Below are positions 16,152 to 44,161 of a stretch of DNA of 64,000 bases, in pieces. The notes under the pieces are model-generated. The model was not told the origin of the DNA, ran no database searches, and saw nothing but the letters and a program-made list of their open reading frames with translations. Made by a program: the position numbers and the translations under genes. Every line of letters starts with the position of its first letter. Positions within the stretch are counted from its first letter, which is position 1. The DNA is from a bacterium (GTDB taxonomy: Bacteria > Patescibacteriota > Minisyncoccia > Phycocordibacterales > Phycocordibacteraceae). The stretch spans positions 640,001-704,000 of the forward strand of contig JBBCGK010000001.1 of NCBI GenBank assembly GCA_037200965.1. Direction: 5' to 3'.

Positions 16152-16559
16152 ATGTCTACCATAAACCAGCTCGCGAAGAAGCGCCGCAAGGATAAGACGA
16201 GGAAGACCACGGTCCTCGCTCTTGGCCGCGGCTTTAACGCGCTCGAGAACCGCCCGACCTACTATTCCTCGCCCTTCAAGCGCGGCGTTTGCACCAAGGT
16301 GACCACGAAAACTCCAAGGAAGCCGAACTCGGCCGTCCGCAAGATCGCGCGCGTGAGGCTCACGAACGGCATGGAGGTCACCGCGTATATCCCCGGAGAA
16401 GGGCACAACCTCCAGGAGCACTCGGTGGTGCTGCTTCGCGGCGGCCGCGTGAAGGACATCGGCGTCCAGTACACGATCGTGCGCGGCAAGCTCGACACCG
16501 CGGGCCTCGAGAAGCGCCGCCGCTCGCGCTCCCGCTACGGCGCGAAGAAGCCTAAATAA
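16152..16559 (+). CDS. rpsL: 30S ribosomal protein S12
   Basis: MSTINQL..., [21 protein letters not shown]... motifs. Confidence 0.9.
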
Positions 16560-16564
16560 TTTCC

Positions 16565-17029
16565 ATGCGACGTCCTCTTAAAAAGAAGCGAACCTGGCGC
16601 CCCGACCTCAAGTACGGATCGGAAGGCCTTGAGCGTTTCGTAAACGCGGTCATGTGGGACGGAAAGAAAGATACCGCCCGCGCGGTCGTCTACGGCGCGC
16701 TTGAGAAGGTAAAGGAGAGCGGCGCAGACCCGCTTGAGACGTTCGAAGCGGCTATCAGGAACGTCTCTCCTCTTATGGAAGTCCGCTCCCGCCGCGTCGG
16801 CGGCGCGAACTATCAGGTGCCGCGCGAGGTTCCCCAGCAGCGCCGTCTCGCGCTTTCCTATCGCTGGATTATCGGCGCTGCCCGCTCGAAGAAGGGCAAG
16901 CCGATGGCCGAGAAGCTCGCCGAGCAGCTCGTCCTCGCCGCAAAGAACGAAGGCGACGCCATCAAGAAGAAGGATGACATGCACCGCATGGCGGAGTCGA
17001 ACAAGGCATTCGCGCACTTCGCGTGGTAG
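16565..17029 (+). CDS. rpsG: 30S ribosomal protein S7
   Basis: S7 sequence, follows rpsL by 5 bp. Confidence 0.9.
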   Translation: MRRPLKKKRTWRPDLKYGSEGLERFVNAVMWDGKKDTARAVVYGALEKVKESGADPLETFEAAIRNVSPLMEVRSRRVGGANYQVPREVPQQRRLALSYRWIIGAARSKKGKPMAEKLAEQLVLAAKNEGDAIKKKDDMHRMAESNKAFAHFAW

Positions 17030-17050
17030 TCATTTCATAGTATCCGAAAC

Positions 17051-17089
17051 ACAAAAGACGGCCGCGCTACGGCCGTCTTTTGTGTTTGC
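17051..17089. terminator. bidirectional rho-independent terminator
   Basis: ACAAAAGACGGCCG-CGCTA-CGGCCGTCTTTTGT then TTTG; between convergent rpsG and hypothetical gene. Confidence 0.6.
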
Positions 17090-17151
17090 GGCGGTGAATA
17101 CAAAGCAAAGGGTACGGTCCTGAGACCGCACCCTTTCACTCACCCCTTCTC

Positions 17152-17661
17152 TTATCCGGACCGAACGAGCTGCTGTAGCACCCGCACCTGGTCTCCTTCG
17201 TACCGGGCTGCTGCCCGAAGAGTTTCGGCCGTTTTCATCCATTCCCCGATTGCGGTGTGTATGCCGGATCCGATAACCGCTCTCAGAGTACCTGGAAGGT
17301 CGTTCTTGGCCATATCGCCGCCCGGGAGGGAATCGAAGAAAGCGTCCCAAGAGAGCCTTGCGAGACAACCGTATCCGTCTATTTTTGGGGGCGGCTTCGG
17401 GCCAACCAAATACACGCGGACGAACCCGCCTTTGACGGTGACTGGTTTCCCGTCCTTGCGTTCAAGCGAGCCGGGAACGGGAGCGTCGAGCGCCGTAAGA
17501 ATTTCATAACCCGGCGGCATATCGAATGTGACGGCCGCGATTGCTTCGAGGAATGCGCGTTCGTTTCCGTCCGGGTGACGGGCGATAGCTTCGACCGGAA
17601 TGCAATGACCGGACAATTCCTCCAAGTGCGAGAAAGCGGCGATAGAGCTGATGATGCGCAT
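17152..17661 (-). CDS. hypothetical protein (169 aa)
   Basis: ORF only; cargo between rpsG and IS481-like element. Confidence 0.4.
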   Translation of the reverse strand: MRIISSIAAFSHLEELSGHCIPVEAIARHPDGNERAFLEAIAAVTFDMPPGYEILTALDAPVPGSLERKDGKPVTVKGGFVRVYLVGPKPPPKIDGYGCLARLSWDAFFDSLPGGDMAKNDLPGTLRAVIGSGIHTAIGEWMKTAETLRAAARYEGDQVRVLQQLVRSG

Positions 17662-17744
17662 GATTTCCTCCTTGCGCTAGAACGGATTTACGGAATCGAA
17701 TCCGGAAGCACCATAGCATGGCCGTCCGGTTTTTACCCTAAGCA

Positions 17745-18845
17745 GCCGGATTGCCGCAACTTGCACAAGTTCAGATACATATGGCACTCCTCCTAACTGA
17801 GGAGCGATGCGTCAATTCAACATACTGAAGGATACCGAGGGCTGGTTGTATATGCGCGAGCGGAGCATACGCTTCCTGCATATGAGGAACAACGACGAGG
17901 TGCGGCATCGGGTCAAGGTGCTGGACTTCTGGAAAACGCACGGGGAGCGTGCGGCCAGGGACGCCTTCAGCGTCTCTCGCCGCACGCTCTTCCGTTGGCA
18001 GGCGAAGCTCGACCGCGCGCACGGGAGACTCGACGCGCTCGATCCCAAGTCGACGGCACCGAAGAATCGGAGGAGACGCATCGTCCTCCCCGAGGTCGAG
18101 ACGTTCATCCTGAAGGAGCGCGCGGAGCATCCGAGGCTCGGCAAGGCGAAGCTCGCAGCCCTGCTGCGGGAGGACGGGTACCGGGTATCCGAATCGTATG
18201 TCGGGAGGGTCGTCGCGGACCTCAAGAGGAGAGGGCTGCTGCTCCCGCACAAGCCGCTCTCATACTATGCGCGAAGCGGCACGTATCGGGAGAAGCCCGT
18301 ATCGAAGCGCACGAAGCTGCGCAGGCGGCACAAGCGGGGCATGGAGCTCGACACCGTCGTCCGCTTCATCGACGGCGTGAAGCGGTACGTCCTGACCGCC
18401 ATCGATGTCGAGAAGAAGTTCGCCTTCGCCGGCGCGTATACCGTCCACTCCTCCGCGTCCGCCGCCGATTTCCTCGCGCGCGTCATCGCGGTGTGCCCCT
18501 TCGACATCACGGAGCTCCAGACCGACAACGGCCCGGAGTTCGCCAAGAACTTCGAGGCGGGGTGCCGCGCCCTCGGCCTCACCCACTTCAATACGTTTCC
18601 CCGCAGCCCGAAGATGAACGCGTTCGTCGAGCGGTTCAACCGGACGATCTCGGAGGACTGCATCATGCTCAATCGGCCGCTCCTGCGGGACGACGTCGCG
18701 GCATTCAACCTGAAGCTGGTCGACTGGCTGCTCTGGTACAACGCCCGGCGTCCGCACGAGTCCCTGGGACAGGTGCCGCCGCTCCGGTATATACTCTCCT
18801 CATTAACGGCCGAGGAGTGCCAGAGGTACTGGACGCGTACGCCTG
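17745..18845 (+). mobile_element. IS481-family-like insertion sequence (second, divergent copy); right end abutted by IS30
   Basis: upstream end CATATGGCACTCC...CTAACTGAGGAGCGATG resembles the IS at 6973-7944; the C-terminal ECQRYW segment is homologous to the ECSIC-stop IR of the first copy; approximate boundaries. Confidence 0.55.
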
Positions 18846-18850
18846 AACCC
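17807..18850 (+). CDS. IS481-family DDE (rve) transposase (ORF in the track reads through to 19003 into the adjacent IS30)
   Basis: HTH N-term, TDNGPEF, SPKMNAFVERFNRT, RRPHESLGQVPPLRY; no stop codon before the IS30 junction. Confidence 0.7.
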
Positions 18851-19849
18851 CACTCTAACTGCAACACTCACTTCCTCAGAAATATCGAGCGCGGTGATTC
18901 GAATTTCAGACGCTTGCGCGGCCGGTCATTGAGCTTCTTCACCACATGCGCCAGCTCCTCAGGGGTGATCAGGTTGAAGTTGAGCGAACGAGGAAAGTAC
19001 TGACGCAGGAGTCCGTTGGTATTCTCGTTGGTACCACGCTCCCAAGGACGGTGCGGGTATGCGAAGTACACGGTTGCCCCGCTCTTCTTCCCGAGTCGCT
19101 TCCAGTCGGCAAATTCTGGACCGTTGTCGAGCGTGATGGTCTTGCGTTTGGCACGCGGAATATGACGGAAGCGTGCGAGCGCAAGCGACGTGAGGAGCTC
19201 GGCGCGCATCTTGGGCAACAAGTATGCAACCAGGTATCCGCTCCTGCGATCCACAAAGGTGACAATGCGGACTCGCTTGTCGCTGCCTTGCACCGTATCG
19301 CCCTCCCAGTCGCCGAGCCGGCTTCGTCGTTCAATAATCGTTGGACGGTCATCAATACGCTGCTTCTTGGCCGCTTCACGAGCCTTCTCGCGTATTTTGG
19401 TACCGCGCCTGCGACGGTATTTGCCTTTGGATGATCTGAGGAACTGCTTCAGGTGCGGAGCACGCTCCTCAATATATCGGTATATGGTGCTGGCGGAGAC
19501 TGCACCCGTCACCCCTTCAATTTGCTCAGGAGAGTGGTGGTCTTTGAGCATACGCACCACCGTGCGCAAGAGCGCACCCTTGAGCACGCGAATACTGTCC
19601 ATTGCAGCAATGCGTTTCAGCTTCTTCTTTCTGCGTACTTCGCGTACATCATATCCCTCACGTCCGCCGTATTCGTTCACATGACGAGAGATCGATCCTG
19701 CATCCTTCTCAAGCGTACGTGCGATCTCTCGGATCGCGTGTCCTGCCCGCAGCATGCGGGCAATCACCGGCCAGTCTCCTGGCCCAATCTGGGTATGTGC
19801 CATATCCAGAGAGTGTGGAACCCAAAAGAGCTGTTGCAATTAGCCTGCA
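18846..19849 (-). mobile_element. IS30-family insertion sequence (second copy, different lineage)
   Basis: ends CTAACTGCAACAC (18855-18867) and CTGTTGCAATTAG (19831-19843) inverted; same architecture as IS30 at 11231-12315. Confidence 0.65.
18868..19803 (-). CDS. IS30-family transposase
   Basis: DDE core, YFAYPHRPWERGTNENTNGLLRQYFPR, LNDRPRKRLKFESP. Confidence 0.85.
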   Translation of the reverse strand: MAHTQIGPGDWPVIARMLRAGHAIREIARTLEKDAGSISRHVNEYGGREGYDVREVRRKKKLKRIAAMDSIRVLKGALLRTVVRMLKDHHSPEQIEGVTGAVSASTIYRYIEERAPHLKQFLRSSKGKYRRRRGTKIREKAREAAKKQRIDDRPTIIERRSRLGDWEGDTVQGSDKRVRIVTFVDRRSGYLVAYLLPKMRAELLTSLALARFRHIPRAKRKTITLDNGPEFADWKRLGKKSGATVYFAYPHRPWERGTNENTNGLLRQYFPRSLNFNLITPEELAHVVKKLNDRPRKRLKFESPRSIFLRK

Positions 19850-19888
19850 AACTTTGTTGCGATTAGGGTGGGGATTCACCTACACAAC

Positions 19889-19918
19889 TTTGACAGACCT
19901 TTGTCTATAGGTTATTAT
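19889..19918 (+). promoter_or_regulatory. sigma70-like promoter TTGACA-N18-TATTAT upstream of 19963 gene
   Basis: consensus -35 and near-consensus -10 with 18-nt spacing; flanked by CCTTTGTC/GACAAAGG inverted repeat. Confidence 0.35.
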
Positions 19919-19962
19919 ATCCATGGATTCCCGAGTGGCGGGACAGACAAAGGGAGACGTGC

Positions 19963-20391
19963 ATGAACAATCCTGAATTCCGCGAACTCGCGCAGGAAAT
20001 CGATCTGTTTTTGTATTCGGCTGACGGCGAGCGCATCACCGACTATCTGAAGTTCCATGAGAAGCGTATCGTCCTGTTCCGCTCCACGGACTTGGGCGTA
20101 TACCGCTGCTACGGCCTCATGTATGCGGGCTTCGCCTGCTGGGCGGATGCCGACGTCGAGCCCGACGCTGACCCGGCGCTTCGTTCGCTTGACGCTGAGT
20201 CATTCGTCGCGCGCTGGTTCAAGGAAACGGGCGACAACTCCGCCGCGTCGCTCGTCGAAGCGATCAGGCAGGGTTATAGGCGGTTGTGCGAAGAGGATGA
20301 AAACCCCCCGCTCACTGGCCTTGTCCTCGGAATTATCGTTTTCCTCGCCGTTTTCATCTTCCTTGGACTCAAGATCACGGGTCATCTCTGA
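19963..20391 (+). CDS. hypothetical tail-anchored membrane protein (142 aa)
   Basis: single C-terminal hydrophobic helix LTGLVLGIIVFLAVFIFLGL. Confidence 0.4.
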   Translation: MNNPEFRELAQEIDLFLYSADGERITDYLKFHEKRIVLFRSTDLGVYRCYGLMYAGFACWADADVEPDADPALRSLDAESFVARWFKETGDNSAASLVEAIRQGYRRLCEEDENPPLTGLVLGIIVFLAVFIFLGLKITGHL

Positions 20392-20429
20392 CGGCCCGTT
20401 CGCAAGAACCGGTACAACACTTGGGCGCG

Positions 20430-20463
20430 GGCCCGGACCACAAATCCGGGCCTTTGCTTTTCC
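20430..20463 (+). terminator. rho-independent terminator
   Basis: GGCCCGGA-CCACAAA-TCCGGGCC then TTTGCTTTTCC. Confidence 0.5.
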
Positions 20464-20549
20464 TAGAAAACCCGCTACTCTATGGATAACGCCTCGGCGC
20501 TTTTATTTTTACCGCTTCCAGACACAACACATCCCTTACGTACTAGTAT

Positions 20550-22697
20550 ATGAACCGCGACTACCCGCTTGAGAAAGTCAGGAACTTCGGAATCATCGCC
20601 CATATCGACGCCGGAAAGACCACCACGTCCGAGCGCATTTTGTATTACACCGGTTCCCAGCACAAAATCGGCGAGGTGCACGACGGAGAGACCACGACCG
20701 ACTGGATGGAGCAGGAGCGGGAGCGCGGCATCACCATCACGGCCGCCGCCATCACCTCCTTCTGGACCCGCACCAGCGAGCCGGACAAGAAGGACGTTTC
20801 GAAAAAGTTCCGCTTCAACATCATCGACACGCCGGGACACATCGACTTCACGGTCGAGGTGAAGCGGTCCATGCGCGTCCTTGACGGCGCGGTCGTCGTT
20901 TTCGACGGCGTCGCGGGCGTCGAGCCGCAGTCGGAGACCAACTGGCGCTATGCGGACGAGGCCAATGTGCCGCGCCTCTGTTTCATCAACAAGCTCGATC
21001 GCACGGGCGCATCGTTCGAGTTCTCCTATAAGAGCATTCTCGACCGCCTCTCGAAGAAGGCCGTGCGCATGCAGATCCCGGTGGGAGAGGAAGACCAGCA
21101 CGAAGGCGTCATCGACCTCCTTTCCATGAAGGCTTTCACCTTCACGGGCAACATGGGCGACATCGTGACCGAGGGAGAGATCCCGGCGAACCTCCTTGAG
21201 GACGCGAAGAAATACCGCGCAGAGCTCATCGAGCGGATCGTCGAGCACGACGAGGCGGCGATGAGCGCGTATCTTGAGGGCAGGGAGCCCGAAGTGGCGG
21301 AGCTTAAGACGATTCTCCGCAAGGCCGTGATCGCGAACGCGATCTTCCCGGTCTTCACCGGTTCCGCGCTCAAGAACAAGGGCGTGCAGCTCGTGCTTGA
21401 CGCCGTCGTCGACTATCTCCCGTCGCCTCTCGACATGCCGCCCGTCAAAGGCATCAACCCGAAGACCGGCGAGGAGGTCGTCCGCAGGGCTTCCGACGAC
21501 GAGCCGTTCACCGCGCTTGCCTTCAAGCTCCAGACCGATCCGTTCGTCGGTGCCCTTACGTTCTTCCGCGTCTATGCGGGAACTTTGACCGCAGGCTCGT
21601 ACGTATACAACTCGACGACCGGCAGCAAGGAGCGCGTCGGCCGCATCGTGCGGCTTCAGGCTGATAAGCGCGAGGAAGTGGAGAAGGTGTTCGCGGGAGA
21701 GATCGCGGCGGCCGTAGGTCTCAAGGACACGAAGACTGCGCACACGCTCTGCGACGAGGCGAATCCGATCATCCTCGAGACTATCAAGTTCCCGGAGCCG
21801 GTGGTATCGCTTCGCATCGAGCCGAAAACCAAGGCCGACCAGGAGAAAATGGGCATGGCGCTCAAGAAGCTCTCCGACGAGGACCCGACCTTCCGCGTCA
21901 CCTCGGACGCCGAAACCATGGAGACCATCATCTCGGGGATGGGCGAGCTGCATCTCGAGATTCTGGTCGACCGCATGCAGCGGGAGTTCAACGTGGGCGC
22001 GAATGTCGGGAAGCCGCAGGTGGCATACCGCGAGACGGTGCTCGGCGCGTCCGATGCCGAAGGCAAGTACATCAAGCAGACCGGCGGCAAGGGCCAGTAC
22101 GGGCATGTGAAGATCAAGATGAAGCACCTCGAGCCTTTGGACCCTGAAGCGAAGATTCCGAAGAACGTCACGCGCGAAGCCAATTTCGAATTCATCAACA
22201 ACATCAAAGGCGGCGTGGTGCCGGCTGAGTTCATCGCTCCCGTCGAGAAGGGTATCCGCGAGTCGATGGCGCGCGGCATTCTCGCGGGCTTCCCGGTCGT
22301 CGACATCTCCGTCGACCTCTACGACGGTTCGTACCACGACGTGGACTCCTCGGAAATCGCCTTCAAGATCGCGGCATCGATGGCCTTCAAGGAAGCCGCG
22401 ACCCGCGCGAAGCCGGTGATTCTCGAGCCGATCATGAAAGTGGAGGTGGTGGTGCCGGAGAAGTTCATGGGCGACATCACGGGGAACCTCTCCGGGAAGC
22501 GCGCTTCGATCGAAGGCATGGAAGAGCGCGGCATGAACAAGGCGGTGCACGCCAAGGTGCCGCTCTCCGAGATGTTCGGGTATACGACGACGCTGCGCTC
22601 CATGACCGAGGGCCGCGGCTCCATGACCATGGAATTCGACCACTACGAAGTCGTGCCCCAAAACGTCGCGCAGGACATCATCGCGAGCAGGAAGTAG
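20550..22697 (+). CDS. fusA: elongation factor G
   Basis: [16 protein letters not shown]-domain, domains II-V; 715 aa. Confidence 0.95.
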
Positions 22698-22714
22698 CTT
22701 CCTGAGTATCAGGC

Positions 22715-22747
22715 AAAACCCCGGCGTGCTGTGCACGCCGGGGTTTT
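22715..22747 (+). terminator. rho-independent terminator after fusA
   Basis: AAAACCCCGGCGTGC-TGT-GCACGCCGGGGTTTT. Confidence 0.6.
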
Positions 22748-22936
22748 GCTCATCTTTCCGCTTCTTGCAATCTTCAGGGCGTTCGGTTACATTCAACATA
22801 ACGCAGGCCTGCGGCTTTTTGCTGTTTCAGCGGGAAGTCGCGCCGCGGCAATTATCCGATTCGCGTCTTGCGCCTTGGTCGCCTGCCCTTCGCAGGCAGG
22901 CGCGCGCGGTAACAGTTCCGATAACTTTACAATCAT

Positions 22937-24139
<1,203 letters not shown>

Positions 24140-24161
24140 GGTTCCAATCGGTTCGAAAAAG

Positions 24162-24191
24162 AAAAGCCCCGGCCTTGGCCGGGGCTTTTCT
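24162..24191 (+). terminator. rho-independent terminator after tuf
   Basis: GCCCCGGCC-TT-GGCCGGGGC then TTTTCT. Confidence 0.6.
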
Positions 24192-24236
24192 ACTTGCGCT
24201 TTTAGCGGCCATGGTGCATACTCGCGGATACGTTCT

Positions 24237-24617
24237 ATGACAGCAGCGACGATCACTCCGAAGCCCAAGCGCGCCTCGAAAAAGGCGGCTGATGTCGCTG
24301 TACCTCCTGCCGAAGCGAAGCTCCGCATCCGCATCAAGGCCTACGAGCACAAGATCCTCGACCTTTCCGTAAAGCAGATCATGGATACCGCGGCACGTTT
24401 CGACGCGAAGGTCGTGGGCCCGGTGCCGCTCCCGACCGAGATCAAGCGCTGGACGGTAAACCGTTCGACATTCGTCCATAAGGACGCGCGCGAGCAGTTC
24501 GAGATGCGCATCCATAAGCGTCTTATCGACATTCTCTCCCCGAATCCGAAAGTGATCGAAGCGCTGACGAATCTCAATCTTCCGTCGGGCGTCACGATCG
24601 ACGTGAAGATGGTGTAG
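24237..24617 (+). CDS. rpsJ: 30S ribosomal protein S10 with ~25-aa N-terminal extension
   Basis: LRIRIKAYEHKILD...GPVPLPT...HKRLIDIL. Confidence 0.85.
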   Translation: MTAATITPKPKRASKKAADVAVPPAEAKLRIRIKAYEHKILDLSVKQIMDTAARFDAKVVGPVPLPTEIKRWTVNRSTFVHKDAREQFEMRIHKRLIDILSPNPKVIEALTNLNLPSGVTIDVKMV

Positions 24618-24640
24618 CCGTATTTTAAAAGGAATGAAGA

Positions 24641-24668
24641 AAACCGCCGGTAGGCGGTTTCCTTTTTT
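24641..24668 (+). terminator. hairpin AAACCGCC-GGTA-GGCGGTTT plus TTTTTT immediately after rpsJ
   Basis: 8-bp stem plus T6 run. Confidence 0.55.
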
Positions 24669-24724
24669 GTGCTGAAGGCAGGGCCTGTGCTAGGCTTTGA
24701 CGGGACAACTGTGAAGGTAGATCT

Positions 24725-24898: not shown

Positions 24899-25072
24899 GC
24901 TTCCGGCGCTACACACCTAACAAAGGCCGCGGGCGAAAGCCCGCGGCCTTGGAGTTTGCATCTTTCGGAGCCTTCGTGTAGAGTGCCCCTATCGCTACGA
25001 ACGGTGCCCTTGGCCGGTCCAATGGCAATTCGCGCTGCTGCGATTGCTGCTAGCGCGTTTTGCTTTAGCCAC

Positions 25073-25705: not shown

Positions 25706-25713
25706 ATTTCCGT

Positions 25714-33814: not shown

Positions 33815-33895
33815 ATATTCGGATACTTCACATTCTCGGATAGTGACGTTAACGGTATCCACGTCGAGCGTCCGATGGCATCAAGGAGATGTGTC

Positions 33896-35956: not shown

Positions 35957-36272
35957 GACACTTCCTTTCTATGAACCCCTCACTCCTTAGCGAAGCCCCA
36001 GGTTCAACAGCCTTACCTCCACCCGATTGTGGCGGTTTCAGCGCGCAACAGCCCACTTTAGTGAGCCCCTGAGCGCTGAAACCGCCCCTAGCCTTGTTTT
36101 CAAGGGACGTATCTATCTAAGAGTGTATACTATATATCATATCTTGTCAAGTTTTCCGTAATGGTTCAATACCTTGGATGATTCCAGGGTATTGACAGAT
36201 AATACTGTATGTGCTAACGTTACTTAAGCGTTCGGGCCGCTCTTTTCAGCTCGGAACCAATGGAGGAACATC

Positions 36273-36668
36273 ATGAACAAGATTTATCTGGCTATCATGG
36301 CCGTCATTTCCCTCTCCGGCATCGCCCTGGCCTTCAGCCCCGAGGCGGTGTTCGAGAGCGCTTCCCGGGTTGACCCGGGCGGCACCCTGTCGTTCGCGAA
36401 CTTCTCCTTCTGGACGTGCGTCTGCATCGGGGGCGTCGTTTTCTTCTTCTCCCGTCGCGGATCACAAGGAAAAGAAATCGCGAGGATCGGCTTGCTTCTC
36501 GGAGCCGCGGCCGCGTGCCTTGCGCTCATGTCGCTCACTCACTACTTCGCGTACTGGCATCAGGGCCTCGCGACGATGCTGGGCATCATCTTCTTCGTCT
36601 CCCCGCTGCTCGGCATCGCGATCGCGCTGTCCGACCGACAGCAGACATCGGTTCCGAACGGAGGCTGA
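36273..36668 (+). CDS. small membrane protein D (131 aa, 4 TM)
   Basis: hydrophobic helices; hairpin GGAGGCTGAAGCCTCC just downstream. Confidence 0.45.
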   Translation: MNKIYLAIMAVISLSGIALAFSPEAVFESASRVDPGGTLSFANFSFWTCVCIGGVVFFFSRRGSQGKEIARIGLLLGAAAACLALMSLTHYFAYWHQGLATMLGIIFFVSPLLGIAIALSDRQQTSVPNGG

Positions 36669-37522
36669 AGCCTCCGGTCAAGGACTCGGTTCGCACGCAG
36701 GTACGGCCCCACGCAATTCGGCGTGGGGTCTTTTGGATATATTCGACGCCGCCGGATATATATATAGTGTCCTTCCCGTTCGAGATATCGGCTGGTACGA
36801 TCAAGGATCCGGCACGTCCTCGGCTTGTGCAATGTCATCAAGCCGTAGTTGCGCTTGAACCAGTCCTCAATCGCAACACCTTCCAAACCCTCGGCGCGGT
36901 GTCTTCCGGCGAAGACACTTGCGAGGCTGGTGATTGAGAAGGCAGGTCACGCGGTCAGCCTGTCGCTGGGACAGCGCTCCGAGTTCCATGTCCTCGGGAA
37001 AGAACCGGCGCAGCTGTTCTCGCATGCACCCCGCTCCCAGGGATGATGGGGACGGGCGAAGTATACCCGGGCATTGGTATCGCGCTCAATGAACTGCCAG
37101 AGCGTGAACCCGGTACCACGATCGTACGTGATGGTATGTGCAGGAAGATCAGGAAGCGCTCCTCGCGCTTCCTGGTGCACCGTGTTCGTTTCGTCGTCAG
37201 ACACGAGCCGCGCCCGCAAGGAACCCGCCTCTTTCGGTCAACACGGGCCAGAAACCTTGCACGGTCGCGTCCGACCGCGGTATGGTCTCGTCGGATATGA
37301 TGCGTCCCTCTTCGGTGATCTGTTCGGGCGGTCAGCGCGCAGAAGCGCGGACAGAAACACCCGCTCGTCGCGTGTCAAGTGATGATGCGTTGAAGGCCCG
37401 AATGATGGATACCATTCGGGCTTGAAGACAGAAGCATTGCGTTTCAAGCTCGGATTTAAGCTATGATTTAGCGTTGACGCGGGTTGAACCCCGGGCAAAG
37501 CAGGCGCGGACCTCGTTCTCAT
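36560..37522 (-). pseudogene. degenerate IS30-family transposase remnant (multiple frameshifts)
   Basis: fragments ITYDRGTGF...YFARPHHPWERGACEN (36947..37219) and an HTH-like LTRDERVFLSALLRA (37238..37522), collinear with intact IS30 transposases but in different frames. Confidence 0.55.
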
Positions 37523-37674
37523 CCATTTTCGCGAAGTTCGTGATTTCGGTAAAGTTGTTTAGGCCGTCTGACGAAAGATTATCCCGCTTGGCCGCTCGAC
37601 CAAGCAGGGCTCCTGTTTGACGCCCCGTAACCTATTTGATACAGTGTCCTGAAGCTCCGCGGAGCTATTTTTGT

Positions 37675-37944
37675 ATGGCTAAAACCTCCCAGCTTGCCCG
37701 GTACGCCAAGAAGGCGAAACTGGTCAAAAAGTACGCCGCCAAGCGCGCGGCTCTTAAGGCTGCCGGTGACTCTGAGGGCCTCCAGAAGCTCCCGCGGAAC
37801 TCCTCCCCGGTTCGTTTGAAGAGCCGCTGCGCCGTTTCCGGCCGCTCCCGCGGGTATCTCCGGGCGTTCGGCCTCTCCCGCATCCAGTTCCGCGAGATGG
37901 CGAGGGAAGGGAAGATTCCGGGCGTAAAGAAGGCGTCGTGGTAA
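37675..37944 (+). CDS. rpsN: 30S ribosomal protein S14
   Basis: [15 protein letters not shown]...[26 protein letters not shown]. Confidence 0.85.
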
Positions 37945-37948
37945 GCGT

Positions 37949-38353
37949 ATGATCACGGACCGCGTCGGAGATTTCATCGTGCGACTCAACAATGCCGGAG
38001 CGGTCCGGAAGCCGTCCGTCTCGCTTCCGTATTCGGCGCATCTCGAAGCGATCGCGAAGAAGCTCAAGGCGCTCGGGTACGTCGAAAGCGTGGACGTTAT
38101 CGCAAACGAGAAGACCCCGGCGAAGCGCACGCTCGACGTCGTACTCGCTTATGACGCGCAGGGCGTCTCGAAGATCCACGGCGTGAAGCGCGTATCGAAG
38201 CCCGGCCGCCGCCTCTATGCCGCAGGGAAGGACGCGCACAGCGTCAAAAACGGAGTCGGCGTCCGCGTGCTCTCGACCCCGAAGGGAATCCTTTCGGACC
38301 GCGAGGCGAGGAAGCAGCAGGCCGGAGGAGAAACCCTTTTCGATATCTGGTAA
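37949..38353 (+). CDS. rpsH: 30S ribosomal protein S8
   Basis: MITDRVGDFIVRLNNA... Confidence 0.9.
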   Translation: MITDRVGDFIVRLNNAGAVRKPSVSLPYSAHLEAIAKKLKALGYVESVDVIANEKTPAKRTLDVVLAYDAQGVSKIHGVKRVSKPGRRLYAAGKDAHSVKNGVGVRVLSTPKGILSDREARKQQAGGETLFDIW

Positions 38354-38368
38354 TTCTTTTATTTTCGT

Positions 38369-38902
38369 ATGTCACGCCTCGCAAAAAAGCCCGTCGTTCT
38401 CGCTTCCTCCACCCAGGTTTCGGTGGCTGACGGCGTGCTGTCGGTCAAAGGCCCCAAGGGAACGCTCACGCGCCCGGTCCATTCCTTCGTTTCGATCGAA
38501 GTGACTCCCGAAGGCGTGCAGGTTTCGCCAAGAAACAACAGCAAGCTCTCCAAGGCGCTCACGGGCACCTTCGTCGCGCATGTGCGCAACATGGCTGCGG
38601 GCGTCGTGACGCCGTTCAGGAAGAGCCTTATCCTTGAAGGCGTGGGCTATAAGGTCGAGCTTGCGGGGAAGGAGCTCGTGCTCTCGGTCGGCTTCTCGCA
38701 TAAGGTGAAGCTTCCGGTTCCCGAAGGCATCACGGCGACCATCGAGAAGAACACGATTCATTTCGACAGTCCCGACAAGGACGCGCTCGGCCAGTTCGCG
38801 GCAGTCGTCCGTGCCGTGAAGCCGCCGGAACCGTATCTTGGCAAGGGCTTCCGCTATTCGGACGAGAAGATCCTCCGGAAGCAGGGGAAGAAGGCAGTCT
38901 AA
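38369..38902 (+). CDS. rplF: 50S ribosomal protein L6
   Basis: L6 sequence. Confidence 0.9.
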   Translation: MSRLAKKPVVLASSTQVSVADGVLSVKGPKGTLTRPVHSFVSIEVTPEGVQVSPRNNSKLSKALTGTFVAHVRNMAAGVVTPFRKSLILEGVGYKVELAGKELVLSVGFSHKVKLPVPEGITATIEKNTIHFDSPDKDALGQFAAVVRAVKPPEPYLGKGFRYSDEKILRKQGKKAV

Positions 38903-38911
38903 TATTTTCGT

Positions 38912-39262
38912 ATGACCAAGATAGCGACAACCAAGAGGACCCAGCGCATGAGCCGCCACAAGCGGGTACGCTCGCGCGTCAAAGGCACCAAGGAGCGCCC
39001 GCGCCTCGCGGTCTTCCGCTCGAACAAGTTCGTCTCCGTGCAGCTCATCGACGACGCGGCGGGAAAGACGATCGCGCAGGCGCACGGCAGGGAATTCCCG
39101 GGCGCGCAGTCGCTCCAGGCCGCGGCTATCGGCAAGGCGATCGCGGAGCGGGCGAAGAAACTCGGCGTTTCGGCCATCGTCTTCGACCGCGGAGGATACG
39201 CGTATGCCGCGCAGGTGAAGAGCCTCGCGGACGCCGCGCGTGCAGGCGGCCTCTCCTTCTGA
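38912..39262 (+). CDS. rplR: 50S ribosomal protein L18
   Basis: L18 sequence. Confidence 0.85.
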
Positions 39263-39268
39263 TACGGT

Positions 39269-39892
39269 ATGGCTGACGACACCATCATGACTCCCGAGAC
39301 CGAAGTACAGGACGCGCCGGTTGAAGCGGCGCCCGAAGCCGCCGTTGAGGCGGAAGCTGCGGCTACGCCCGAGAAGACCGCGGTTCGCGGCCGCGCTCCG
39401 CGCGGGCGCGGAGGCCCCGGGGGCCAGCGCCGCTCGAACCGCCTTCCCCGCGAGCGCGGGGAGTTCGACTCGGTCAATATCGACGTGCGCCGCGTGGCGC
39501 GCGTCATGGCCGGAGGCCGCCGCTTCAACTTCAGCGTCGCGGTCGTAATCGGTGATAAGAAGGGGAGGGTCGGCGTCGGACTCGGGAAGGCCGCGGACAC
39601 CGCGCTCGCGATTGACAAGGCGACGCGCGACGCGAAGAAGCATATGTTCACCGTGCCGCGCACCGACTCGGGCTCCATCCGCCACGAGGTCCAGGCGAAG
39701 TACGCGTCCTCGACGGTGGCGGTCATCCCGTCGAAGGGCCGCGGTCTCGTCGCCGGAAGCGCGATGCGCACCGTGCTCGAGCTCGCGGGCGTCTCCGATG
39801 TCGTCACCAAGATCCTCTCGCGCACCAAGAACAAGCTCACTATCGCCCGCGCGACGGTAGCGGCTTTGAAGAAGCTCCGCACCCGCTCATAA
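39269..39892 (+). CDS. rpsE: 30S ribosomal protein S5 with acidic/Ala-rich N-terminal extension
   Basis: S5 core VVIGDKKGRVGVGLGKA. Confidence 0.9.
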   Translation: MADDTIMTPETEVQDAPVEAAPEAAVEAEAAATPEKTAVRGRAPRGRGGPGGQRRSNRLPRERGEFDSVNIDVRRVARVMAGGRRFNFSVAVVIGDKKGRVGVGLGKAADTALAIDKATRDAKKHMFTVPRTDSGSIRHEVQAKYASSTVAVIPSKGRGLVAGSAMRTVLELAGVSDVVTKILSRTKNKLTIARATVAALKKLRTRS

Positions 39893-39899
39893 CATTTCC

Positions 39900-40358
39900 A
39901 TGCAGTTCAACAACCTCAAATCGAATCACTCCCGCCCGAAAAGCACCGTCGTCGGACGCGGCGGCAAGCGCGGCAAGACTTCCGGACGCGGTGGCAAGGG
40001 CCAGACCGCGCGTGCGGGCCACAAGATACGGCCGGAGATGCGCGACATCATCAAGAAGCTCCCGAAGCGCCGCGGATACGGCAGGAACCGCAGCCGCACC
40101 GTCCGTCGCGACCGCGGCGGATACGCGCCGGTCAATCTCGCCGCGCTTGAGGCGACGTTCGCCGCGGGCGACGCCGTCACCCCTTCGATCCTCGTGAAGA
40201 AGGGTCTCGTCCGGGCCCTCTCCGGCCGCGCCCCGCTCGTGAAGATCCTCGGCACCGGGGAGCTCACCAAGGCGCTCTCCATCTCGGGATGCGAAGCGTC
40301 CGCGAGCGCCAGGAAGGCGATAGAGGCTGCGGGCGGCTCGCTCGTATCCCATGCTTAA
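39900..40358 (+). CDS. rplO: 50S ribosomal protein L15 (no L30 gene precedes it)
   Basis: L15 sequence; 7-nt gap from rpsE. Confidence 0.9.
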   Translation: MQFNNLKSNHSRPKSTVVGRGGKRGKTSGRGGKGQTARAGHKIRPEMRDIIKKLPKRRGYGRNRSRTVRRDRGGYAPVNLAALEATFAAGDAVTPSILVKKGLVRALSGRAPLVKILGTGELTKALSISGCEASASARKAIEAAGGSLVSHA

Positions 40359-41625
40359 CGCCTTTTATCACAAGCTCAAGCTCACCTTCAGCGACGAGGC
40401 GTTGCGCACCCGCATCTTTTTCCTCGTGGCCGCGCTCGCCGCGTTCCGCTTCCTTGCCGCGATTCCGATTCCGGGTGTCAACCACGATGCGCTCACGCAG
40501 TTTTTCGCGAACAACCAGTTCTTCGGCCTTTTGAACGTCTTCTCGGGCGGCGGGCTCTCGCATCTCTCGATCGTGATGCTCGGGGTGGGCCCCTACATCA
40601 CCGCGAGCATCATCATGCAGCTCGGGACCGCGGTCTCCCCGCGCCTCAAGGCCCTCTATTTCGAAGAGGGCGAGGCGGGCCGCGCGAAATTCATCGAGTG
40701 GAGCCGCATCATTACCATCCCGCTCGCGCTCATCCAGGGCGTCGCGTTCCTCTTCCTCCTTCAGAGCCAGGGCATCATCGAGCCGCTCTCTGCCGTGGGG
40801 CTTGTCGCGAACGTGCTTCTGGTCGCCGCGGGCTCCCTCCTTCTTATGTGGCTCGGAGAGCTCGTGACGGAATTCGGTATCGGCAACGGCGTCTCGCTCA
40901 TCATCTTCGCGGGCATCGTCTCGCGCTTCCCGTCCGAGCTTTCCCAGCTCCTCTTCACCGCGACCGCGGCGAACATCCCGGCGTATCTCGGTTTCGGGGC
41001 GCTCGCGCTCGCGGTCGTCTATGCCGTGGTCGTAGTGTCGGAGGCGGAGCGCTCGATCCCGATCGCGTACGCACGGGCGGTCCGCGGCGCGGCGCTCACG
41101 AGCGGCGCGGCGACCTATCTCCCGCTCCGTCTTCTTCAGGCGGGCGTGATCCCGATCATCTTCGCGCTCTCGCTCCTGCTTCTCCCGCAGATGGCGCTTT
41201 CGATACTCGCCGCGGCGAAGATTTCCTTCTTCGTCGGCGCGAACGCCTGGTTCGCCGCCTTCATCGCGAACCCCTGGGCTTATGGCGCCGCGTACTTCGC
41301 GCTCGTCGTCCTCTTCACGTATTTCTATACCTCGATCACCTTCGAGCCTAAACGCGTCGCGGAGAACCTTCAGAAGTCGGGAGCCTTCGTCCCCGGAGTC
41401 CGTCCCGGCCGCGAGACCGAAAACTACATCAGCGCCGTCGTCTCCCGCATCACGCTTCCGGGCGCCGTGTTCCTCGGCCTCGTCGCGGTCGTGCCGTTCA
41501 TCATCCAGGGGCTCACGGGCGTCACGGCCTTCCTCGTCGGCGGTACGGCCCTCCTCATCGCGGTGCAGGTCATTCTCGATCTCGTACGGAAGATCGACGC
41601 GCAGGCATCGCTTCGGGAGTATTAA
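40351..41625 (+). CDS. secY: preprotein translocase subunit SecY
   Basis: 10-TM SecY sequence. Confidence 0.95.
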   Translation: MLNAFYHKLKLTFSDEALRTRIFFLVAALAAFRFLAAIPIPGVNHDALTQFFANNQFFGLLNVFSGGGLSHLSIVMLGVGPYITASIIMQLGTAVSPRLKALYFEEGEAGRAKFIEWSRIITIPLALIQGVAFLFLLQSQGIIEPLSAVGLVANVLLVAAGSLLLMWLGELVTEFGIGNGVSLIIFAGIVSRFPSELSQLLFTATAANIPAYLGFGALALAVVYAVVVVSEAERSIPIAYARAVRGAALTSGAATYLPLRLLQAGVIPIIFALSLLLLPQMALSILAAAKISFFVGANAWFAAFIANPWAYGAAYFALVVLFTYFYTSITFEPKRVAENLQKSGAFVPGVRPGRETENYISAVVSRITLPGAVFLGLVAVVPFIIQGLTGVTAFLVGGTALLIAVQVILDLVRKIDAQASLREY

Positions 41626-41642: not shown

Positions 41643-41670
41643 AAACAGCCGGAGCGTGCTCCGGCTGTTT
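41643..41670 (+). terminator. hairpin AAACAGCCGGAG-CGTG-CTCCGGCTGTTT after secY
   Basis: perfect 12-bp stem ending in TTT. Confidence 0.5.
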
Positions 41671-41727
41671 GACATTGAGAGCGAATCGTTATATTTTTGC
41701 CGCAGATACCAAGTTTGCGAGGTTCCC

Positions 41728-42117
41728 ATGCTCTCCCTGCTCCAACTGTTCGGGTTCGGCGCAAGACCGAAAAAGCCCGTACCGTCTCCTTTGCCCCAAC
41801 ATAGCCGGGATGCGGTCTCACTTCCTCGGGTGCTCGAAGAAGCGCGTCGGTCGTGCCTGAACGATGACGGCACGATCAGTGTGAAGAAGCTCCGTTCGAT
41901 ATTTCCCGTGCTCTCGCCTTTTTATATCGTCTTCAACGAAAAAGGAAAGGCACAGGCACAAAGAGAGGGGGTAGTCTACAACCGACCGAACCTGTCGAGT
42001 GTGTTCGCAAGCCCGGATTCGGGCATGCCGGTGGTGTGCGGTTACCTGTGCGTTGTCATTGAACGCACGCCGGATTACATGCTGGTCGACCGCGAATTCA
42101 ATCTCAGGCTGAGATAA
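41728..42117 (+). CDS. hypothetical protein (129 aa)
   Basis: ORF only; start at internal ATG of the 41656..42117 ORF. Confidence 0.3.
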   Translation: MLSLLQLFGFGARPKKPVPSPLPQHSRDAVSLPRVLEEARRSCLNDDGTISVKKLRSIFPVLSPFYIVFNEKGKAQAQREGVVYNRPNLSSVFASPDSGMPVVCGYLCVVIERTPDYMLVDREFNLRLR

Positions 42118-42185
42118 GCGTTATCGGTTCTCAGGTATCGTTCGAAAGTCCGCGGGCCAGCCATTCGGCTGGCCCTTGTTTGTTT

Positions 42186-42752
42186 TTACGCACTAGCGCT
42201 TTGCCAGCCGCGAAAGGCGCCAAGCACCATAGCGACCACAGTCTCCAGATTATTGTGCGTCGTGTTGATAACCGCGTCGAACTGGGTTGTATCGTACACG
42301 TTCACTCCGTAGAGTGCGGAATAGCGCCGCGTCTCGCTTGCCGTTCTGACTTCCGTATTTTCCCTGATCTCGGCAGCTGAGGATCCTTCCTGGCTCACCC
42401 TCCCTTGATCGCGAATATGGGCATAAATTCTTTCGGCCGCGCTTTGCGGATCGACATAGAGGAACACTTTGAATGATTCGGGAATCCAGTGAAAGGCAAG
42501 CCGGGAGTCTATGACGAGCTTCTCCTTCCCGTTCATGTTTTTCAGGAGTTCGTCCACTCCGTGATCGACATCGTTGCGCTCTTCAAGCGAAAGATTCATC
42601 GCCTCGATGGAAAGGCCGCGCTCCGCGGCTATCTGGCGGAACAGGTCGCCCGAGGAGAAATGTTCGTACCCGAGTGCGGCGGCGACCGCTTTGGCCGTGG
42701 AAGATTTACCGCTACCGATAGAACCCGCGATCGTGATGATTTGAGGCTTCAC
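42186..42752 (-). CDS. cmk: cytidylate kinase
   Basis: P-loop ITIAGSIGSGKSS and NMP-binding segment; antisense to the flanking secY/adk. Confidence 0.7.
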   Translation of the reverse strand: MKPQIITIAGSIGSGKSSTAKAVAAALGYEHFSSGDLFRQIAAERGLSIEAMNLSLEERNDVDHGVDELLKNMNGKEKLVIDSRLAFHWIPESFKVFLYVDPQSAAERIYAHIRDQGRVSQEGSSAAEIRENTEVRTASETRRYSALYGVNVYDTTQFDAVINTTHNNLETVVAMVLGAFRGWQSASA

Positions 42753-42800
42753 GTTTCCGTGATTATAGCCGCACCAAGCCTTTTTTGCTACACTCCCCGT

Positions 42801-43388
42801 ATGACAGACTCAGGCGCCCTGGGCGCGGTGCTATTCGTCGGCAGGCCTGGATCCGGCAAGGGTACGCAGGCGCACATGCTTGCCGCACGCCTTGGCTGGC
42901 CGCTTTTTTCCTCGGGCAACCACTTCAAAGACCTTATTTTGAAGGCTACGCCGCTTGGCGAGCGCATACGCGACGACTATAACCGCGGCAAGCTTTCTCC
43001 GGACTGGATCGCCGATTATTTCTTCGAGGAAGCGATTCTTTCGCTTCTCCCCGGGCAGGGGCTCGTTTCCGAGGGCTTCCCCCGGTCGCTTCCGCAGGCG
43101 GAACTCGCGGACGAAGTGCTTGCGTGGCTCGGGCGTCCCTACAAAGTCATACACCTCGCCGTATCCGAAGACTCCGCCCTTACGAGGCAGCTCGGGCGCG
43201 CGAAGACGGAACATCGTCCCGACAGCGATGCTGATGAGAAGATACGGGGCCGGTTCGACGTTTACCGCACCCATACCGAGCCGGTTCTGGATTTCTTCAG
43301 GACGCGAGGCGCGCTCATAGATATCGACGGAGAGAAGGCTCCCGAACAGATCGCATCGGATATCGCGCGCGCCCTGGAACTTTCATGA
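42801..43388 (+). CDS. adk: adenylate kinase (short, lid-less type)
   Basis: GRPGSGKGTQA P-loop; start ATG at 42801 inside the 42489..43388 ORF. Confidence 0.8.
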   Translation: MTDSGALGAVLFVGRPGSGKGTQAHMLAARLGWPLFSSGNHFKDLILKATPLGERIRDDYNRGKLSPDWIADYFFEEAILSLLPGQGLVSEGFPRSLPQAELADEVLAWLGRPYKVIHLAVSEDSALTRQLGRAKTEHRPDSDADEKIRGRFDVYRTHTEPVLDFFRTRGALIDIDGEKAPEQIASDIARALELS

Positions 43389-44161
43389 TCGTACGTACGC
43401 CGAAACAGCGGGAAGACCTGGTGGAAGGAGGCAGGCGCATAGGCGAAGTGCTTGCCAAGGTCGCGCGTGCGGTCGTGCCGGGAATAACGACCGAAGAGCT
43501 CGATGACCTGGCCGAGAAGCTCATACGCGACCTCGGTGACGAGCCGTCATTTCTCGGCTATCAGCCGGAAGGCGCCCGGCGCCCGTTTCCGGCAACGCTG
43601 TGCGTTTCGATAAACGACGAAGTGGTGCATGGCATTCCAAGTCCTTCGAGGAAACTCAAGACGGGCGATATCGTAAGCCTCGACCTCGGGCTTACTCACC
43701 ACGGCCTCATCCTCGACTCCGCGGTTACGGTACCCGTGGGGAAGGTGAAACCCGAGCTTCTCGAGCTTATCGCCGCGACGGACGCGGCCCTTGAAGCGGG
43801 TATCGCCGCCGCAAGGCCCGGCAACCGCACGGGCGATATCTCCCGTGCGATCGGCGAAGCATACAAAGGTACGGGCTTCGCGATCGTGCGCGTCCTTGGA
43901 GGACACGGGGTAGGCGAGCATGTGCATGAGGAGCCTTTCATCGCGAACTACGGCAAAGGAGGCGACGGCGTCGATATCGTGCCGGGCATGGTGCTCGCGC
44001 TCGAGCCCATCGCGACTCTGGGGAAGGCGTCCGTCGTCCTTTCTCAGGACGGCTACACCTACCGCACCAAGGACGGCTCCGCCGCCGCGCACTCCGAGCA
44101 CACTATTTTGATAGAAGAGAAGGAAACTGTTGTACTTACGAGAAGGCCGGGGGAGGTATAA
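43385..44161 (+). CDS. map: type I methionine aminopeptidase
   Basis: pita-bread fold motifs VVHGIPS, DIVSLDLG, GHGVGEHVHEEP. Confidence 0.9.
   Translation: MIVRTPKQREDLVEGGRRIGEVLAKVARAVVPGITTEELDDLAEKLIRDLGDEPSFLGYQPEGARRPFPATLCVSINDEVVHGIPSPSRKLKTGDIVSLDLGLTHHGLILDSAVTVPVGKVKPELLELIAATDAALEAGIAAARPGNRTGDISRAIGEAYKGTGFAIVRVLGGHGVGEHVHEEPFIANYGKGGDGVDIVPGMVLALEPIATLGKASVVLSQDGYTYRTKDGSAAAHSEHTILIEEKETVVLTRRPGEV

Follow-up and report, generated by a model that had tools for sequence, protein, structure and literature searches.

Interruptions of the str-S10-spc ribosomal-protein gene cluster coincide with junctions that are open across related genomes

Results

The subject of this study is the str-S10-spc cluster of ribosomal-protein genes in a 64-kb stretch of bacterial DNA (hereafter the window), which is parted by blocks of insertion sequences (ISs) and cargo genes. 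The window has a GC content of about 59% and is identical to approximately positions 159302-223301 of the 960,259-bp contig JBBCBH010010897.1 from the metagenome-assembled genome (MAG) GCA_037975565.1 (locus tags WDN10_). In a gene map built from Pfam matches and precomputed gene calls, the cluster starts on the plus strand with rpsL-rpsG, encoding S12 and S7, at 16152-17029 (rpsL 16152-16559, rpsG 16565-17029; PF00164 and PF00177). It continues with fusA (20550-22697), tuf, rpsJ, a spacer of 455 nt and rplC-rplD-rplW-rplB (together 20550-27734, with rplB at 26886-27734), followed by the tightly packed genes rpsS-rplV-rpsC-rplP-rpmC-rpsQ-rplN-rplX-rplE (30258-33761; rpsS 30258-30608, rplE 33201-33761) and by rpsN-rpsH-rplF-rplR-rpsE-rplO-secY (37675-41625; rpsN 37675-37944, secY 40351-41625), all on the same strand, and it ends with adk-map at 42801-44161, also on the plus strand and assigned from the gene calls. 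Three blocks lie between these modules, at 17030-20549 between rpsG and fusA (block i), at 27735-30257 between rplB and rpsS (block ii) and at 33762-37674 between rplE and rpsN (block iii). Together they hold an IS481-like and an IS30 element (block i), an IS1595 element (block ii), a decayed IS30 relic (block iii) and eight cargo genes.

The original prediction for this locus, made from the sequence alone, had placed the three blocks at these positions, and Pfam and the precomputed gene calls bear them out to the nucleotide. It had also described the str-S10-spc-alpha order as otherwise intact, which is not the case. A fourth break separates secY from adk (41728-42752) and contains a 129-aa open reading frame (ORF) on the plus strand, a terminator at 42154-42175 and, antisense to the cluster, a gene at 42186-42752 resembling the archaeal-type kinase of (deoxy)cytidine monophosphate ((d)CMP; TIGR02173, 99.9 bits, cutoff 102.1), and the 455-nt spacer stands between rpsJ and rplC. 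Nor is the alpha operon part of the run: infA-rpmJ-rpsM-rpsK-rpsD-rpoA-rplQ do not follow map, so that this operon must be located elsewhere in the genome, and a serine hydrolase gene, a small ORF and a nucleoside-diphosphate kinase gene are found there instead (44162-46000). Canonical str/S10/spc contiguity fails at rpsG/fusA, rpsJ/rplC, rplB/rpsS, rplE/rpsN and secY/adk, and terminator hairpins and promoter-like sites are present.

Ribosomal protein L2 of the window is 62-70% identical to that of MAGs named Candidatus Kaiserbacteria, Zambryskiibacteriota, Paceibacterota and Minisyncoccia, and 78-79% identical to that of three short metagenome contigs; the organism is an ultra-small, Kaiserbacteria-like bacterium from the Parcubacteria/Paceibacteria part of the Candidate Phyla Radiation (CPR), or Patescibacteria. 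The absence of uL30 is a reported CPR trait (PMC9297842), with which the window is in agreement, as rpsE is directly followed by rplO without a uL30 gene in between. I mapped the window's 25 cluster proteins on 167 fetched loci, about 30 of them from the CPR, and measured every junction after correction for unaligned protein ends, calling a junction expanded when its gap exceeded 400 nt. The rplB/rpsS junction is expanded in 16 of 23 CPR loci and in none of 121 others, rplE/rpsN in 9 of 16 against 0 of 66, rpsG/fusA in 5 of 8 against 0 of 20, and fusA/tuf in 9 of 16 against 1 of 27. The corresponding fractions are 4/17 (CPR) and 4/72 (non-CPR) for rpsJ/rplC, and 1/17 and 8/45 for tuf/rpsJ, while the other 18 junctions are expanded in no CPR locus and in 0-3 non-CPR loci each. 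The three blocks of the window coincide with junctions that are open across the lineage. Three independent mobile insertions splitting a co-transcribed operon had been considered very unusual, but the same junctions are expanded in most CPR relatives.

The contents of these gaps differ strongly. The 94 gap ORFs of the relatives show almost no homology to each other or to the cargo of the window in all-against-all blastp and phmmer searches, and a conserved hidden gene in the rplB/rpsS gap was rejected as a candidate, as these programs found only a trio of DUF3298 genes (see below) and a few pairs. The metabolic genes among the contents comprise those for pyrimidine synthesis (pyrD, pyrF, pyrE), guanylate kinase, a deaminase, an NTP transferase and diacylglycerol kinase; others encode two-component regulators, an ABC-transporter binding protein, a 1007-aa PKD/CARDB protein and L10/L12, and the selfish ones HepT and MazF toxins, a reverse transcriptase, an IS200-like gene and another IS1595. 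Interruptions shared with related genomes as ancestral gene order had been named as a finding that would speak against the original prediction. This is partly the case, since the breaks, and at least one cargo gene, predate the ISs.

Several individual loci illustrate this variety. A pyrimidine cassette (genes for dihydroorotate dehydrogenase, orotidine monophosphate decarboxylase and a phosphoribosyltransferase) occupies rplB/rpsS in locus L012 (10567-13305) and the fusA/tuf slot in L094 (2136-4631), probably also in L003 (856-4822, judged from Pfam family counts), and its presence in different slots suggests that cassettes move between hot junctions. Locus L095 (10835-13508) has a HepT/MntA-like toxin-antitoxin pair and an IS1595 3' of rplB, and the contig ends at this IS; L006 (16455-17429) has a reverse transcriptase in rplE/rpsN, and L017 (10941-14732) an IS200-like Y1 transposase beside the 1007-aa PKD/CARDB surface protein in rplB/rpsS. 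No convincing ORF is seen in the rpsJ/rplC spacer of the window (24618-25072), which carries a terminator-like hairpin (24637-24664); four relatives (L011, L014, L017 and L096) carry inserts of 0.9-1.4 kb at this junction.

A hairpin with a T-run within 150 nt past the stop codon is found for rplB in 16 of 28 and for rplE in 6 of 17 relatives, against 0/15 to 0/26 for nine control genes. Promoter-like sites matching at least 10 of 12 consensus positions within 150 nt upstream are found for rpsS (7/23), rpsN (5/16) and secY (3/10), and at most once for other genes. At a threshold of 9 of 12, rpsS is preceded by TTGAC(T/A)-16/17-TAnnnT in 19 of 24 loci, and in at least 13 rpsS loci a short GC-rich hairpin with a U-rich tail starts within 13 nt (mostly 4-9) past the -10 element and before the ATG. 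In the window this unit spans 30191-30257 on the plus strand, with the promoter TTGACT-17-TATCTT and a leader hairpin at 30228-30244 followed by a U-rich tail; it aligns with the corresponding units of loci L088 (4624-4694), L089 (1152-1222) and L090 (2506-2617), and its position is kept while the stem sequence varies between genomes. The same promoter-leader unit is also seen in L005, L009, L011-L017, L094 and L096. Upstream of rpsN (37617-37674, plus strand) the window has a promoter-like site, TTGACG-17-TACAGT, a hairpin AGCUCCGCGGAGCU at 37653-37666, the U-rich stretch AUUUUUGU and the AUG, and in several relatives rpsN has TTGACT-17-TATATT and a hairpin upstream. The window, the rpsS and rpsN leaders included, gives no Rfam match at the gathering threshold, and its tRNA scan was empty. 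The rpsS leader hairpin could be a 5'-terminal stabiliser of the mRNA or a promoter-proximal attenuator. The promoter-like sites predicted earlier at 19889 and 33786 are genuine consensus matches, to which those at 30191 (rpsS) and 37617 (rpsN) can be added, and the expectation that each block has promoter-like and terminator-like signals of its own agrees with the consensus sites and hairpins seen.

For the interpretation of block ii the closest relatives are decisive. The block begins with an IS1595-family element of 921 bp at 27741-28661 on the minus strand, with the transposase gene at 27752-28591 (PF12762, E 2.6e-28; NF033547, 120.9 bits against a cutoff of 75) and a weak match to PF12760, for the N-terminal zinc ribbon. 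Its 18-nt inverted repeats (27741-27758 and 28644-28661) are 94% identical. The element starts 6 nt past the rplB stop codon, in the A-rich shoulder of the rplB terminator, and is flanked by a direct repeat of just 3-5 nt (TAC or TTTAC), where a target duplication of 8 bp is the norm in this family (ISfinder). The exact transposase, as delimited here, was absent from the protein records looked up. Next to the element lies a bidirectional terminator (28666-28704; 17-bp perfect stem, free energy dG -30.4 kcal/mol, z-score -6.6), common to rplB, before the arrival of the IS, and to the gene for a membrane-anchored DUF3298 protein of 261 aa with an N-terminal hydrophobic segment (28710-29495, minus strand; PF11738, E 8.7e-10). 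The last gene of the block encodes 149 aa (29600-30049, minus strand) and has the precomputed label PF27765, UCP032817-like; its earlier designation as DUF1399-like could not be reproduced, as it has no Pfam match even at E<=5. The protein contains WAWHEHILMTKKYASDC and a Cys-rich C-terminus, CKSCKTCGTGPCKS; the former motif resembles the DUF1399/GRDP signature, but this has no support here from a hidden Markov model (HMM), and the label is PF27765. An AlphaFold2 model of the 149-aa protein was too poor for a fold search (pLDDT, the predicted local distance difference test score, 55).

Two of the closest relatives, L088 (E 2e-57) and L090 (E 7e-21), encode homologues of the DUF3298 protein beside rpsS, with slot and strand unchanged, and the comparison of these sequences indicates that the gene was present at rplB/rpsS in their common ancestor with the window and is older than the IS1595. 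L088 keeps the uninterrupted target of the element, TTTTACAAAA: after rplB it reads TAA-CTATTTTACAAAAC-terminator, and removal of the IS1595 and one flanking TAC copy from the window gives TAA-TTTTACAAAAG-terminator, which matches the empty site. The IS1595 therefore arrived after the split from L088. The third close relative, L089, with an L2 protein 78% identical to that of the window, is without cargo at this junction and has a strong bidirectional terminator after rplB, with promoter and leader about 60 nt further on; promoter and leader align with those of the window (TTGACT-17-TATCTT, a CCCGC...GCGGG hairpin and CUUUUCAUUAC).

Block i opens directly 3' of rpsG with a bidirectional intrinsic-terminator hairpin (17047-17087; 18-bp perfect stem, dG -34.8 kcal/mol, z -7.2), followed by a 169-aa cargo gene on the minus strand (17152-17661, WDN10_03820), which has no detected homologue and is also present in a second MAG. 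The element next to it (17762-18843, plus strand) has an ORF at 17807-19003 with rve, rve_3 and HTH_32 domains and NF033577 as its best family (168.7 bits, E 1.9e-49), under the cutoff of 224, for which reason IS481-like is the safe label. Its inverted repeats (17776-17792 and 18812-18828) are 17 nt long and 88% identical, and can be extended to about 31 nt by eye; unitigs ending at 17791 put the repeat boundary near 17762. It abuts an IS30-family element (18844-19880, minus strand) with its transposase gene at 18868-19803 (NF033563, 230.3 bits against a cutoff of 80; Pfam rve and HTH_38), and the IS481-like ORF passes its own right repeat and runs on into the IS30. The inverted repeats of the IS30 are about 21-24 nt long (approximately 18846-18866 and 19855-19876), with a unitig start at 19851 placing the repeat end near 19880; where target duplications of 2-3 bp are usual for the family, its flanks share only CC on either side, too short to be separated from chance. 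CAACTT occurs at 17757-17762 and again at 19885-19890. For the IS481 family, with target duplications of 4-15 bp, these copies would represent such a duplication only on the condition that the IS30 had inserted into the IS481-like element 4 nt short of its end, an event that may have taken place, as it fits the repeat. At a distance of 10 nt from the IS30 stands a sigma-70-like promoter, TTGACA-17-TATTAT (19890-19918, plus strand), which agrees with the consensus at 11 of 12 positions. It precedes a 142-aa gene (19963-20391, plus strand) that is shared by the second MAG; residues 113-142 of the encoded protein are hydrophobic and form a predicted C-terminal membrane anchor. Between this gene and fusA there is a terminator-like hairpin (20429-20453).

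Block iii has four genes without Pfam matches. A promoter-like consensus site at 33786-33814 lies ahead of a 137-aa gene without a family match, known from its gene call (33896-34309), both on the plus strand. Two overlapping genes form an antisense unit (34557-35956, minus strand) encoding 202 aa (35348-35956) and 263 aa (34557-35348), the latter with two C-terminal transmembrane segments, and a promoter-like consensus site for this unit is found at 36150-36122 on the minus strand. The fourth gene, for a 131-aa membrane protein with four transmembrane segments (36273-36668, plus strand), is followed by a terminator at 36705-36730. The relic at 36885-37156 (minus strand) is a frameshifted IS30 of which only the C-terminal ~95 codons are left (phrog_4646 transposase, 1e-12); it is 43% identical to the IS30 transposase of block i, with matches in two reading frames, and its decay points to an earlier round of colonisation.

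All 64 kb taken together, there are two IS481-like, two IS30 and one IS1595 transposases, plus the relic. The ISs are real, as had been proposed: they have inverted repeats at their ends and recur in the metagenome. In SRR28211700 and SRR10968228, Logan unitigs that match the window at 100% identity stop at 17791, 19851, 27770 and 28630. These points lie 16-32 nt within the respective IS ends, where a de Bruijn graph would be expected to break on entering a repeat; this independently confirms the IS boundaries and indicates that the ISs are multi-copy. Unitigs reach into the IS1595 from rplB at one end and from the DUF3298 gene at the other. The second MAG, GCA_015655515.1, comes from a different project and is 99.86-100% identical; three of its contigs are relevant. 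The first extends from the 169-aa gene over 141 nt of the IS481-like element, the second starts at 19740, 137 nt inside the IS30, and runs through the 142-aa gene to fusA, and the third connects the 149-aa gene with rpsS. A Logan contig of 7975 nt covers the whole of block iii at 100% identity, and GCA_015655515.1 covers part of it. Independent assemblies thus reproduce every flank-to-IS junction and span block iii, which answers the concern that the blocks might be chimeric; only the 960-kb contig bridges the ISs themselves.

The cargo had been suspected to be lineage-specific, and four of four proteins searched are without a credible homologue. The 169-, 263- and 149-aa proteins matched only themselves among 5.8e9 protein clusters in a word-indexed search. 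For the 202-aa protein, HMMER gave two weak matches in 1.84e9 representatives (a PAN-repeat protein and a giant protein containing YfbK_C), which I rejected as spurious given pairwise identities of 24-31%, repeat-inflated scores and the absence of the PAN cysteine pattern. Pfam at E<=5 returned only DUF3298 and noise, a PHROGs scan of ten cargo ORFs nothing except the IS30 relic, and PADLOC no match for ten cargo ORFs. An anti-phage defence island was rejected as an explanation on this last result, toxin-antitoxin genes (HepT, MazF) being confined to the gaps of the relatives. The cargo ORFs have a coding-like GC distribution over the codon positions; the GC content at third positions (GC3) is 0.63-0.82, compared to 0.64-0.78 for ordinary genes of the window and 0.80-0.86 for ribosomal genes. 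As the cargo falls within the range of ordinary genes, it is not compositionally foreign, and from its sequence it looks native rather than freshly imported. Membrane segments are predicted in four of the eight cargo proteins, one of which has the extracytoplasmic DUF3298 domain, and my best guess is that the cargo encodes envelope or membrane accessory proteins of an epibiont.

Discussion

The observations presented here can best be accounted for if the breaks are lineage-wide module boundaries that were later colonised by ISs, and not the scars of an intact operon that was split; I put the probability of this at roughly three in four. That the breaks are older than the ISs follows from the relatives being open at the same junctions, from the signals that L089 has without any cargo and from the ancestral DUF3298 gene. 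The str-S10-spc region would then be a chain of modules (rpsL-rpsG, fusA, tuf-rpsJ, rplC-rplB, rpsS-rplE, rpsN-secY and adk-map), each presumably a separate transcription unit parted from the next by a terminator and restarted by a promoter of its own, with the promoters of rpsS and rpsN followed by a short leader hairpin. An insertion at such a boundary would not be polar on essential genes, which would make the boundaries permissive slots, open to the gain and loss of genes and mobile elements, presumably without much effect on the cell. As for the sequence of events, the DUF3298 gene would already have been at rplB/rpsS in the common ancestor with the closest relatives, and orphan genes may have accumulated later; an older IS30 would have decayed in block iii, the IS481-like element would have landed in block i, where an IS30 now abuts its right end, and the IS1595 would have inserted a few nucleotides past the rplB stop codon, in the A-rich shoulder of the rplB terminator.

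Several points weigh against this explanation. The CPR sample of about 30 loci represents the neighbourhood of this lineage and not all Patescibacteria, and blocks i and iii were compared only with relatives at or below about 70% L2 identity, so that their cargo could be recent. Taken singly, each leader hairpin is weak (dG -7 to -12 kcal/mol, z -0.1 to -3.1), and no sigma-70-like promoter was found directly 5' of fusA. Moreover, the promoter and terminator calls are consensus matches in a group whose promoters are uncharacterised, and the control junctions are coding sequence, which in itself lowers the odds of terminator or promoter matches.

A further-reaching proposal would be that the Paceibacteria slots (rpsG/fusA, fusA/tuf, rplB/rpsS and rplE/rpsN) are kept by selection or targeted integration and are framed by an undescribed regulatory or stabilising leader hairpin at rpsS and rpsN, and that their cargo consists of growth-coupled envelope, host-interaction or ribosome-associated factors and not of neutral passengers. 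I consider this rather unlikely.

The original prediction amounted to three recent and independent IS events, which split a contiguous, co-transcribed super-operon and brought cargo, promoters and terminators along. The intact IS481-like, IS30 and IS1595 elements within the blocks are in line with this, as are the promoter at 19890, only 10 nt outside the IS30, the cargo without detected homologues, and the mobile genes (IS1595, IS200-like, reverse transcriptase) that occupy the gaps of relatives, too. However, none of the blocks has the same IS on both sides, and the ISs of the window are not similar to one another in their DNA. A composite transposon was rejected on similar grounds, no IS being duplicated at the DNA level in the window and at most one intact copy per family being present in each block. 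Furthermore, most relatives are open at these junctions, in the majority of cases with no IS present, and the GC3 of the cargo matches that of the host. For block ii this scenario is already weakened, as the DUF3298 gene predates the IS1595 and the promoter and leader of rpsS and the terminator of rplB are present in the cargo-free L089. As a general explanation I regard it as unlikely, and the claim of an extraordinary triple disruption is downgraded accordingly.

Alternatively, the elements could actively target these places by recognising terminator hairpins, their A/T shoulders or the conserved 3' ends of rplB and rplE. Analogues exist in attTn7 downstream of glmS and in hairpin-targeting ISs, and IS30 is known to target inverted repeats. 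The IS1595, 6 nt past a stop codon in the A-rich shoulder of a terminator, would fit such a preference, as would the second IS1595, 37% identical, 3' of rplB in L095, the IS30 within a few nucleotides of an IS end, and the same pyr cassette at different hot junctions in L012 and in L094 and L003. Against this stands that most gap cargo of the relatives consists of ordinary genes without a recombinase, that insertion positions inside the gaps vary, that no integrase, att-like repeats or tRNA were found in the window, and that ISs are equally frequent in the window outside the cluster (6989, 11231), so that I think targeting quite unlikely. An integrase-mediated island was likewise rejected, as window scans gave no tRNA, no recombinase domains and no long flanking direct repeats.

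I give a similarly low chance to functional recruitment, in which the genes in the slots would be kept for growth-coupled, origin-proximal or read-through expression, comparable to adk and map in canonical spc operons. Nucleotide-metabolism genes recur in the gaps of the relatives, the window has a cmk-like gene in secY/adk and ndk about 1 kb downstream of map, and 59 of the 94 gap ORFs of relatives are co-oriented with the cluster. However, five of nine cargo genes in the window, the cmk-like gene among them, are antisense and bracketed by terminators, most cargo is without detected homologues, and the contents turn over completely between genomes. Finally, chimeric joins at repeated IS copies are hardly credible. 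It is true that each of the three ISs is a repeat at whose very ends short-read assemblies break off, that the ISs are spanned by the 960-kb contig only, and that the window has at least one homopolymer indel (14686). However, contigs of GCA_015655515.1 cover 141 nt of the IS481-like element and 137 nt of the IS30, unitigs enter the IS1595 from both sides, and block iii is spanned at 100% identity. Joins made at random would not bring back the canonical order of the genes in three places, and even a mis-join would leave rpsG, rplB, fusA and cargo beside IS ends.

A comparable process has been described for the same cluster in Gammaproteobacteria and Bacilli under the name invasion-separation (PMC8046335; also, in 2019, PMC6735719). 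There, too, small sets of unrelated genes invade a translation-gene cluster, with transposable elements as proposed drivers and neighbourhoods that are not stably kept. Most of those insertions are situated between operons (rpoBC/str, str/S10) and few inside one (nrdHEF in the rpoBC operon), whereas those in the window lie inside what are single operons in Escherichia coli (rpsG/fusA in str, rplB/rpsS in S10, rplE/rpsN in spc); moreover, the same four or five junctions recur in the CPR lineage, where terminators and promoters mark them even when empty. The rRNA genes of the CPR have insertions as well, in the form of introns or intervening sequences with homing endonucleases (PMC11270868), and in both cases translation loci of the CPR appear to be unusually often interrupted. 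The insertions in rRNA genes as described there lie within genes and are removed from the rRNA, whereas those of the window are intergenic and consist of ordinary ORFs and DDE transposases. No homing endonuclease was detected among the latter.

The ISs of the window resemble the IS30, IS1595 and IS481 families in that they have one ORF, for a DDE transposase, and terminal inverted repeats, measure about 0.9-1.1 kb and exist in more than one copy. They differ in that the IS481-like transposase is under its NCBIfam cutoff and in that the duplications are short or ambiguous (TAC or TTTAC for IS1595, CC for IS30 and possibly CAACTT for IS481). Integration hotspots and flexible islands between core genes are known from other bacteria, for example the islands flanked by tRNA or core genes in Enterobacteria. 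Like those, the slots described here are found at fixed positions between conserved genes and vary strongly in content, which includes toxin-antitoxin and mobile genes, but they have no integrase, tRNA, att repeats or known defence systems, measure 0.5-4 kb and are located inside a ribosomal-protein cluster. In the literature searched, I found no description of such junction gaps in the CPR.

CPR phylogenomics and binning checks have the contiguous ribosomal-protein block as their backbone, and this block is usually taken as one operon. The present data suggest that in a large CPR lineage it consists of separately terminated and promoted modules, the boundaries of which would be recurrent landing pads for variable genes and ISs. 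This would explain why ribosomal-protein contigs fragment at rplB, rplE and rpsG, and it would mark defined places to seek lineage-specific genes in streamlined genomes, in addition to yielding a candidate regulatory element in the promoter-proximal hairpin of rpsS and rpsN. For the window itself the surprise is lowered: rather than breaking an essential operon, the ISs would have landed where insertion is tolerated.

Other features of the window

At 15914-15959, 5' of rpsL, the window has a perfect 46-nt palindrome with A- and T-tracts on either side (dG -45.7 kcal/mol, z -10.8), which is probably a strong bidirectional terminator insulating the start of the cluster. Further 5' of the cluster, at 14686, a run of Gs is one base longer than the reading frame of an LCAT-domain gene allows, which leaves ORFs of 221 and 668 aa. 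The gene is intact (892 aa) in GCA_015655515.1, and the additional G represents a true frameshift or else an error of the 960-kb assembly at a homopolymer.

Two further transposase genes 5' of the cluster, at 6989-7891 and 11231-12274 (both on the minus strand), are one IS481-like and one of the IS30 family (225 bits). The IS load is high for a CPR genome of about 1 Mb; ISs are considered uncommon in the streamlined genomes of this group. A 20-nt repeat at 6004, 12254 and 19789 marks the 5' ends of IS30-type genes, and the degenerate copy near 6004 hints at another relic.

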